From contig ML978133.1 of the NCBI GenBank assembly GCA_010015805.1, positions 1 through 64,000 on the forward strand: a DNA stretch of 64,000 nt. Reading direction: 5' to 3'. Each line of letters opens with the position of its first letter. Within the stretch, counting starts at the first letter, position 1. Below the pieces are notes generated by a model. It saw nothing but the letters and a program-made list of their open reading frames with translations, did no database searches and was not told where the DNA came from. Origin of the DNA: Rhizodiscina lignyota (taxonomy: Eukaryota). Shown here in pieces: positions 19,290-21,378 of this stretch. Made by a program: the position numbers and the translations under genes.

Positions 19290-21378
19290 ATGACCACGAA
19301 TAATGCGCCGCAAACACGGCACCAGCAAACCTCCTACCCTTCGCCGCACTCCTACCCTTCACCGTCGATGCAACCCACCTACACCTACCCTCCGCCGTCC
19401 GGCCAAGCACAACCCGAGCCGTATCGCGCCTCGCCTACTGCCTCCAATGTCTCGCTGCCCTCGCTCAATCTCCCTCCAATTCGTGCCATCGATGCTCAAT
19501 CGCAGCCGCCGCCGCAACAACAACACCATCCACCACAGCAGTCAGCACCGCCAGCCCACACCCAGAGCGGCTCCCCATTGCCGCCGCCGCCAGCAACAAT
19601 GAGCGGCTACTATCCCCAGCAGGCCCATGGAATGCAAAATCTCGTCCAGCCCATGGGCATCACCTCGTCGCCGCAGCCATTGGGCATGCGCTATCCGTTG
19701 CCCGCGCAGGGCCAAGACCAGAGGATAATGTCTGGCGGGAGGCACAAGAAGGAGATCAAGCGGAGGACCAAGACGGGCTGCCTGACGTGTCGCAAGCGCA
19801 GGATAAAGGTACGCGACTCCAATTTCGCATCTCCAGCAGTCGTTTGGCGTTGCGCGCAGATCTCCCATGCGGATGATGTTGATGCAGTCCTTGGTTGCCT
19901 CGACTTTCCCTCCGAGGCTCGTTTAACGAAGCGAGCGCCAGAAGCGATCCTTCGCTTCCAAACCTCAACTTAACCGCATTTATTTCCCACAACGCCAATT
20001 TTAAGCGTGTCAGCGTGCTAACTACCACCTATTCTTGTAGTGCGACGAAGCCCATCCGACGTGCCGCAATTGTCAAAAGTCTAAACGCGAGTGTCTTGGG
20101 TACGATCCAATCTTTAAACCCCAAGCTAGTCCAGCAAATTTACAACCCGCTCCAAGCGCCTCACCAACCGGAACTCCCTCGTCCAACATTCCTCTTCCAT
20201 CCGCACCAGCATATCCAAACGTACCACAAGGTTACAACCCTCCGACCGCCCCCGGCTACGCGCAGGCCCCAGCGCAGCAACAGCCCGGTGCTGCATCAAG
20301 CTCCTACGACTTTGGGCCGGCCATAGATCCTGCATTGGCCGCTGCGGAGATGCAGCACGCGCAGTCACATCTTGAATTGGCAAGTTCACACAGAGCGCCT
20401 CCTCAAACCACGCGATCACAGCCCGGAACAGATGGACGTAAGTGAAGTGCCAATTCTAAACCAGACTGCAAGTACGATGCATCTTCTAAAATTGTAGGTA
20501 TAGGACCAAGAGTTCGGTTAGATGACTTGCATACCATTTCCGGTGTGGCGCCGCCTTCCCCGGTACCACGAACAGCGCCGCCATCCGAAGCCGCCATTGA
20601 GGAGGTGAAACTACTCTATCATCGAGATTATGCGCCGGGTCTGGATAAGTTCCTCGAGACGACTTGGTACTCTCAAAGAAGCTGGCCCAAGCTGATCCAC
20701 GACGGGCCGTTGTTCGACCTATTCATCCAAATGCTGGATCGCTTCAGAGCAGTGAAGAGCGACGATTATCGAGGCGCGCAACTAATACGGAGCTTAGAGA
20801 CGAAGGTGGTGTGGAGGCTCCTCTGCATGCCACGCTCACCTCATGCAGCAGCGAATGGCGTTACAGGGGCGCCTTCGCCTGAAGAAGCACTCCAGCTCCT
20901 GGAAGCACAAAAGCGACTCGATGCGTTCGAGGCGCTCCTCACACACACCACACTCGACCGTAACCCGCTTCTTGACGTCCATTATCAAGAATCTCTCCAA
21001 ACCCTGAAGTATTGGGAGGTCGAGTTCTGGCGGCTGCTCGGCCAAATCGTATCCCGGATGCCGACGCCAGCTTCCAACTCAGAAGCGCCGGTGCCACAGC
21101 TATCACTCGACGACATGATGCAGGCGTGCCGCAATATCTTGAGCATGCTTGAGAACAGAGACGTGCTATATTCCATGCTGGTGTGCAGGGTCTTCGGCTC
21201 ACGCTTACCAGGCTGGCCGGACATAAAAGAAGTGTTTAATACGGACCAGGAGGATCCGAGACTGAAGGTCTTTATCGGCAAAAAGTTTTTAGAGGAGGAA
21301 GCGGGCGGGAAAGGTACGAACCAGGTCGTGCAGCGCATGTGCGACATGGCCGTCAGGAGCTGGACCCTCGGGCGATGA
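19290..21378 (+). CDS. Zn(II)2Cys6 transcription factor (tentatively McrA-like); introns 19809-20040 and 20438-20497 or 20503
   Basis: Splicing gives [44 protein letters not shown], a complete six-Cys cluster. Pro/Gln-rich N-terminus. C-terminal domain YAPGLDKFLET...GTNQVVQRMCDMA. The McrA resemblance is from memory only. Confidence 0.88.

Follow-up and report, generated by a model that had tools for sequence, protein, structure and literature searches.

Why does a gene for a Zn2Cys6 transcription factor carry a long intron that cuts its DNA-binding domain in two, and what does that intron contain? The question is raised by a 64,000-nucleotide (nt) stretch of the Rhizodiscina lignyota genome (contig ML978133.1, positions 1 to 64,000; hereafter the window), in which a gene starting at position 19290 is interrupted by a 232-nt intron (intron 1) between the second and third cysteines of its zinc cluster. 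An initial annotation of this DNA had noted that intron 1 can fold into an elaborate multibranch structure. Our comparison with orthologous introns indicates that evolution has kept the intron's position, its length and a handful of short motifs, and not the multibranch fold. Intron 1 is probably ancient, position-fixed and unusually long, and probably houses a previously undescribed conserved cis-regulatory module; we consider it likely that it contains a conserved functional element.

Position, length and motifs of the orthologous introns

A profile built from 22 relatives recovered 80 orthologous loci in metagenome contigs (designated below by L numbers), and a script placed the junction in each of them between a stretch ending in ...C(R/K)(K/R)RR(I/V/L/M)K and one opening with C(D/E..)xxPxCxxC. 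An intron lies exactly at this junction, between K and C, in 65 of the 80 loci, and three further contigs end inside such an intron (68/80). Among the 12 loci without it, L001 and L007 each contain one uninterrupted open reading frame (ORF) of about 600 amino acids, and the DNA of L001 and L051 is 67-84% identical to that of the intron-bearing loci L077 and L078. Judged from their sequences, the intronless L001, L007 and L051 look like spliced transcripts, L001 and L051 because these DNA-level relatives carry the intron. L012 and L065, on a 121-kilobase (kb) contig and with a protein 96% identical to that of Aureobasidium pullulans, appear from sequence to represent a true intron loss.

Together with the window, the set comprises 57 distinct introns in 33 sequence lineages. 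The nearest named proteins, by lineage, belong to Dothideomycetes, Lecanoromycetes (55-68% identity), Leotiomycetes (55-83%) and Eurotiomycetes; on the Eurotiomycetes side they include Penicillium (86%) and Aspergillus/Paecilomyces (73%), and several other lineages are distant from all named classes. The lineage median length of intron 1 is 214 nt (range 84-367), with at least 150 nt in 27 of the 33 lineages. A typical Pezizomycotina intron measures 50-70 nt, and intron 2 of the window gene 60-66 nt. The shortest orthologous introns include those of L004-L006 and L074 (84-128 nt), which start with GC rather than GT. At the Leotiomycete-like locus L077 (positions 2059-3465), intron 2 is absent, exon 2 continuing to the stop, and intron 1 is kept at 244 nt.

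We counted motifs once per lineage, leaving aside the first 10 nt and the last 40 nt of each intron, and compared the counts with those in shuffled introns:

AAGCGA: 20 of 33 lineages; shuffle mean 2.0, maximum 7 in 500; best of any 6-mer in shuffles, 11
AA(A/G)CGA(G/A) or GAGCGAG: 22 of 33 lineages; shuffles 2.5, maximum 7
ACCGAG: 13 of 33 lineages; shuffle expectation 1.3
(A/T)A(C/G)CGAG: 18 of 33 lineages; shuffles 1.4, maximum 6
WCGCGW: 19 of 33 lineages; shuffles 9.1, maximum 17 in 500
TCGCGA: 13 of 33 lineages; shuffle expectation 3.1

The order of the motifs is kept, and AAGCGAG mostly lies 90-180 nt from the 5' splice site. Three related introns show the same constraint at close range: their motif-bearing first ~125 nt are nearly invariant and their middle ~100 nt divergent. 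The proposed module would have (C/G)AAGCGAG as its core, in most cases with (T/A)A(C/G)CGAG ahead of it; Dothideomycete-like lineages add CCAAAC and ACCTC downstream. Because position, length and short motifs have been kept across lineages near four Pezizomycotina classes, the intron is not neutral filler. The earlier idea that the intron holds a functional element is supported in outline; the multibranch fold as a conserved unit is not.

Several other roles for the motif were tried by eye and rejected. Read as an alternative 3' splice site (AAG/CGAG) with a TAAC branch point, it lacks a consistent AG as well as a donor further downstream; a coding role of the retained intron does not fit a motif that occurs in all three frames; and Ire1-type loops, B-box or tRNA-like sequence, and Mmi1 or Ssd1 sites gave no consistent match. 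A literature search for AAGCGAG and CTCGCTT returned unrelated primer matches only. Separately, the L010, L046 and L066 contigs, from three lineages, end 106-121 nt into the intron, at or within ~19 nt after AA(A/G)CGA(G/A). These ends may reflect an assembly effect of rare unspliced reads or a real RNA end, and we set them aside as evidence; short extensions of exon-anchored reads would end there too.

The Rhizodiscina gene and the fold of intron 1

The window gene encodes a 596-amino-acid Zn2Cys6 protein with 100% identity to Rhizodiscina lignyota NA57DRAFT_79836 (Dothideomycetes, Aulographales). Its parts are:

19290, + strand: ATG start codon, from the sequence and the public protein
19290 to 19808, + strand: coding part of exon 1, M1 to K173, ending with Cys1 and Cys2 of the zinc cluster
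19809 to 20040, + strand: intron 1, 232 nt, GT-AG, phase 0, between Cys2 and Cys3
19971 to 19973, + strand: in-frame TAA reached by read-through of retained intron 1, after 173 + 54 residues, without Cys3-Cys6
20017 to 20022, + strand: branch-point-like GCTAAC, 18 nt before the 3' splice site; orthologs have CTAAC or CTGAC at the same place
20041 to 20437, + strand: exon 2, with Cys3 at its start
20438 to 20503, + strand: intron 2, of ordinary length; 66 nt annotated, 60 nt with the AG at 20497 as acceptor
20504 to 21378, + strand: exon 3, conserved C-terminal domain including the stop

Intron 1 has the marks of a spliceosomal GT-AG intron: its borders (GTACGC at the 5' end, TTGTAG at the 3' end), its branch motif, and a reading frame that is restored on removal as in the public 596-amino-acid protein P0001, whose exon junction coincides exactly with removal of intron 1. 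The initial annotation had placed a 232-nt intron here, between Cys2 and Cys3, and was right to do so. It had also read a retained intron on to TAA 19973, and this reading holds as well: the stop comes after 54 intron-coded residues, and the product has no Cys3-Cys6. Across the joined exon 1 and exon 2 sequence, the protein carries the CX2CX6CX5-12CX2CX6-8C pattern of the Zn2Cys6 cluster (Pfam PF00172). PF00172 is a precomputed annotation on the whole protein; exon 2 by itself holds half of the domain and, in keeping with this, its score of 17.9 bits falls short of the 21-bit cut-off. Some members of the protein family bear the public-source label 'white-opaque regulator 2'. In intron 2, two acceptors lie 6 nt apart (ttgtAG/gtatAG/, window 20491-20504); the public protein corresponds to the second, joining …TDGR to PRVRL, and the first would insert Ile-Gly.

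The fold of intron 1 is built from the following elements:

19844 to 19852, + strand: 5' arm of the outer helix, TTGGCGTTG, pairing with 19990-19998; not seen in orthologs
19867 to 19882, + strand: 5' arms of the second and third helices, ATGCGG (19867-72) and GTTGA (19878-82); mean pair probability 0.94-0.98
19897 to 19918, + strand: hairpin GCCTCG (19897) / CGAGGC (19913); mean pair probability 0.65-0.66; not conserved
19918 to 19935, + strand: hairpin CTCGTTT-AACG-AAGCGAG, the first copy of AAGCGAG, paired with its complement via one G.U
19941 to 19958, + strand: hairpin GAAGCGA-TCCT-TCGCTTC (arms at 19941 and 19952), the second motif copy; pair probability 0.99
19958 to 19969, + strand: CCAAAC then ACCTCAAC, a downstream block common to Dothideomycete-like orthologs
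19974 to 19998, + strand: 3' arms of the second helix (CCGCAT, 19974-79) and of the outer helix (CAACGCCAA, 19990-98)

All nested and hairpin arms listed in the initial annotation were found at the coordinates it gave. The 3' arm of the third helix is TCAAC at 19965 (partner GTTGA at 19878), and the loop and flank of the 19918-19935 hairpin, TTTAACGAAG, are similar to a conserved TAACCGAG block. AAGCGA(G) occurs twice in this intron, at 19929 and 19942, and each copy is one arm of a hairpin, accounting for two of the three hairpins. In terms of the proposed module, Rhizodiscina would thus have two core copies, each paired in a short hairpin to a complement of the CTCG(T/C)TT type, and three lineage-specific outer helices would close the whole domain and give rise to the strong fold noted at the outset.

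The sense strand of intron 1 has a minimum free energy of -66.8 kcal/mol (z = -3.33), and none of 200 dinucleotide shuffles was as stable. It folds better than the antisense strand, for which z was -1.75 and 11 of 200 shuffles were as good. For comparison, 60 stretches of 232 nt from elsewhere in the 64 kb gave a mean z of -0.13 (standard deviation 1.13, minimum -2.60), and none of them reached intron 1. The fold is real and unusual for the region, even allowing for its having been picked by eye. With or without exon context, mean pair probabilities were 0.88-0.99 for all helices but the outermost and GCCTCG/CGAGGC. Taken alone, the outermost helix had a pair probability of 0.94; flanks of +/-100 nt lowered this to 0.00, and flanks of +/-300 nt gave 0.84. 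The helix depends on context because intron positions 19844-19856 can also pair (11/13) with CGCGCAGGGCCAA in exon 1 (19703-19715), which displaces the helix fully at +/-100 nt.

As a structured unit, the multibranch fold did not carry over to the orthologs. The 57 orthologous introns, each compared with 60 shuffles, were no more stable than these (mean z -0.56, median -0.20; 6/57 below -2), a result that also counts against action through RNA, weighed below. Only three lineage groups among the 57 introns had z < -3, namely the window, L017/L018/L050 and L045/L047. For the three outer helices and the GCCTCG hairpin we found no counterpart in orthologs, and aligning 18 whole introns with MAFFT left too many gaps for a structure to be derived. 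Nor did folding bring the 5' splice site effectively closer to the branch point than in shuffles (26 lineages, mean z +0.18), a comparison that covered 26 of 34 sequences and had low power because any sequence this long brings its ends together in silico. L017 (3085-3205), L018 and L050 share a lineage-specific insertion of ~170 nt with a strong fold (intron z -3.5 to -4.5); its sequence diverges among the three relatives, and its closing helix CCAGAAAC/GTTTTGG is kept.

Leader copies of the motif and the level of its action

The reverse complement of the intron motif recurs in the 5' leader of the gene:

18985 to 18999, + strand: leader CTCGCTT (18992-18998) in a local hairpin GAAGCG-TCT-CGCTTC, 292 nt upstream of the ATG

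This CTCGCTT is the exact reverse complement of AAGCGAG. Between -1300 and -500 from the end of exon 1 it is the commonest 7-mer, found in 17 of 30 lineages (shuffle mean 2.8, maximum 8; best of any 7-mer 12), and its own reverse complement occurs in only 4 lineages in the same leader region. L001, an mRNA-like contig with a single 596-amino-acid ORF and no introns, whose relatives have the intron, carries CTCGCTT 189 nt before the ATG.

The leaders and introns hold further copies and variants. The L012 and L065 leaders contain two CTCGCTT copies 22 nt apart, with AAGCGAG ~80 nt beyond, and in exon 2 of the same loci AAGCGAG is also spelled by codons for K-R-E. The window has a further GTCGCTTG at 19267-19274, 16 nt before the ATG; the same word is a 5' hairpin arm in the L017-group intron. 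A leader block of ~35 nt, CTCGCTTCGTACCTTGCAC.TGTCGATACGCGAGAA, is common to L008, L015, L066 and L079, lineages with otherwise unalignable introns, and in L076 TTCGCTTCGTAC lies within the intron rather than the leader. The Penicillium-like introns of L020, L042 and L080 have no AAGCGA; they contain the leader motif in sense form, as CTCGCTTG, within a loop closed by the GC-rich stem GCGGGG...CCCCGC.

How might these motifs act? We tentatively propose that the element works at the RNA level on splicing, tuning in the pre-mRNA the removal of the intron that splits the DNA-binding domain. The motif could act as a hairpin, as a protein-binding site, or by pairing with the leader CUCGCUU, and would set the efficiency with which the intron is removed. 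Transcripts that retain the intron would stop at TAA 19971-73 and give no functional factor, or be degraded, and the amount of active regulator would be tuned in this way. A more specific version, a long-range pre-mRNA switch acting across much of Pezizomycotina, would have leader CUCGCUU pair with intron AAGCGAG over exon 1 in competition with the local hairpins and so decide intron removal; we rate it as quite improbable. In its geometry, AAGCGAG lies ~120 nt into the intron, the span to the leader is ~800-1100 nt, and Rhizodiscina has two of the local hairpins that would compete.

Several observations speak for RNA-level action. In about nine of the 33 lineages (the window, L002/58, the L017 group, L021, the L045 group, L048, L053/61, L070 and L077/78) the motif pairs locally with its CTCG(C/T)TT complement in a hairpin whose loop measures 3-45 nt. 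In this recurring 7-base-pair (bp) hairpin two pairs vary, one stem position being C-G, U.G or U-A and another C-G or U-A, in a small sample; a small covariance model of it (R1) reached E < 0.01 for its own lineages only, scored the L079 and L002/L058 introns at E 0.5-6, and is too poor in information for new members to be picked out with confidence. In addition, leader:intron duplexes were stabler within than across lineages (-20.0 versus -17.1 kcal/mol, p = 0.003, 8 lineages); relaxing the selection to 16 rows, of which L058 is invalid, gave p = 0.03. Also pointing to RNA are the identity of the commonest leader 7-mer with the exact reverse complement of the intron motif, the presence of a leader copy within the mRNA-like contig L001, and the stabler fold of the sense over the antisense strand.

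A number of results weigh against this proposal. Two of the 8 lineages behind the p = 0.003 duplex comparison share one intron window, and a flank-shuffle control for leader:intron pairing was weak (mean z -0.44, Fisher p = 0.16; again with row L058 of 16 invalid). Pairing of the motif with its 70-nt flanks was no better than chance (mean z -0.29 upstream and -0.44 downstream, n = 20), in a design that excluded partners <5 nt away and so under-counted tight hairpins. Motif and complement co-occur in 8 of 33 lineages, about as their marginal frequencies give. Penicillium-like introns have CTCGCTT in sense orientation, and Aureobasidium-like loci without the intron still keep two leader CTCGCTT copies. 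Finally, the orientation bias is not independent evidence for a strand-specific role, because it is inherited among orthologs. The longest motif helix was not informative either way (observed mean 7.5 bp, controls 7.05).

These same results bear on the main alternative, in which the motifs act as DNA. Here the intron would be kept long for transcription-factor sites, as an intragenic module or enhancer, and the Rhizodiscina fold would be a by-product of inverted site copies. Candidate sites are CTCGCTT/AAGCGAG, present also in the promoter-leader region, CCGAG-type sequences and WCGCGW, which we take to be a StuA/MBF-type box; they might serve autoregulation or an APSES/MBF-type factor. We judge this alternative somewhat unlikely on the whole, and it fits the data about as well as RNA action does. 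It accounts for motifs conserved as primary sequence without a consistent pairing partner, for the same 7-mer standing in leader and intron in opposite orientation (in the same orientation at Penicillium-like loci), for leader copies that remain where the intron is lost, for the excess of WCGCGW and TCGCGA over shuffles, and for the lack of a folding signal across the intron class. It sits less well with the spacing of the inverted copies, which at 3 to 45 nt is unlike a dimer site, and with the frequency of AAGCGAG in the rest of the window, where it is not enriched (15 found, 11.9 expected). Hairpin mismatches are mostly of the G.U kind (8 versus 3 A.C by hand count), weak evidence in the same direction, as is the weak matched-lineage complementarity of the leader:intron flanks.

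That the fold is incidental, or serves compaction only, is a further alternative, and one we think unlikely. The outer helices and the non-conserved hairpin would then be lineage-born and without regulatory role, at most bringing the 5' splice site near the branch point. The lack of counterparts in orthologs and the restriction of z < -3 to three lineage groups agree with this, as does the related group that keeps a strongly folded 170-nt insertion of diverging sequence, and there is a selection bias in one finding picked by eye from many introns; but the distance comparison, low in power as it is, gave no sign of compaction, and an incidental fold leaves the kept length and the conserved motifs unexplained. 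The initial annotation had also raised a hosted non-coding RNA and a riboswitch-like element or thermosensor, and neither found backing. For a processed small RNA (a small nucleolar RNA (snoRNA), a microRNA-like RNA or other), which we consider extremely improbable, one could point to conserved short blocks amid divergent sequence in a long intron, as in snoRNA host introns. However, the Rfam search that had been suggested came back empty for the intron: the Rfam 15 covariance models gave no match inside 19809-20040 at E <= 10, and the seven weak matches over 19500-20400 (E 0.31-9.4) all lie outside intron 1, far below gathering scores. ARAGORN found no tRNA in intron 1. The 232 nt contain no RUGAUGA and no CUGA of a box C/D snoRNA, only TGATG at 19874 and 19880, and no ANANNA of a box H/ACA snoRNA, with a single ACA at 19989; the minimum-free-energy structure is multibranch, unlike the two-hairpin H/ACA layout, and no conserved hairpin-hinge-hairpin arrangement was seen. 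A riboswitch-like or thermosensing aptamer that controls splicing is very improbable too. An intron whose retention destroys the protein does resemble the arrangement of fungal thiamine pyrophosphate (TPP) riboswitches, but neither a match to TPP or any other riboswitch nor a conserved multi-helix junction turned up; conservation lies in motifs of 6-9 nt, and the fold is not kept across orthologs. An origin as a transposon or miniature inverted-repeat transposable element also finds no backing: the 64-kb window holds no second copy of the intron (best other match 13 nt), and the orthology of the intron across classes counts against such an insertion.

Significance and comparison with known systems

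Because the intron cuts the zinc cluster in two, any effect on its splicing would directly set the amount of DNA-binding-competent protein. If the long-range switch were true, the level of a master-regulator-type Zn2Cys6 factor would be set post-transcriptionally, by RNA folding or by a motif-reading factor. The motif pair offers a mutable handle under the RNA and the DNA reading alike. The gene family is widespread, in lichen fungi and in plant pathogens (Botrytis, Sclerotinia, Blumeria and Pseudocercospora are among the relatives), and the literature searched held no characterization of its function in filamentous fungi. Fungal introns have yielded few conserved non-coding elements, and hardly any of these belong to transcription-factor genes.

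Complementary 'zipper' stems in long Saccharomyces introns, described by Libri, Charpentier and Rosbash and by Rogic et al., reportedly shorten the distance between 5' splice site and branch point. Like these zippers, the nested helices 19844/19990, 19867/19974 and 19878/19965 enclose the central part of their intron in a loop, the intron being roughly four times as long as usual. They differ in that the distance in 26 lineages is no shorter than in shuffles and in that the window helices are not conserved. TPP riboswitches in the introns of fungal NMT1 and THI4 are intron elements that choose between productive and unproductive mRNA; the window intron differs in that it matches no Rfam family, shows no aptamer fold kept among orthologs and is not linked to a metabolite pathway, and in that its host is a transcription-factor gene.

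The fungal structured-RNA screens of Li & Breaker 2017 (PMC5640933) and Gao et al. 2021 list no such element in the passages and table consulted, and in the PMC5640933 text consulted 'zinc' and 'Zn2' are absent and 'transcription factor' occurs in the reference list only. The closest published elements resemble ours as conserved non-coding elements of Pezizomycotina-wide occurrence and unknown function in an intron of a single-copy protein gene. The published elements have 4-24 significantly covarying pairs, whereas the window element is mainly primary sequence with one 7-bp hairpin and two varying pairs; and the list as presented in those passages has no zinc-cluster gene, whereas the host here encodes a Zn2Cys6 factor. 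A parallel in effect comes from Aspergillus nidulans Zn2Cys6 genes such as AN1569, in which intron retention near the zinc-cluster region introduces a premature stop and leaves less full-length factor (Etxebeste 2021, PMC8396895). In the parts of that report consulted, the AN1569 event was seen by RNA sequencing with no conserved intronic element described, whereas in the Rhizodiscina gene the element is seen from sequence and the retention is predicted.

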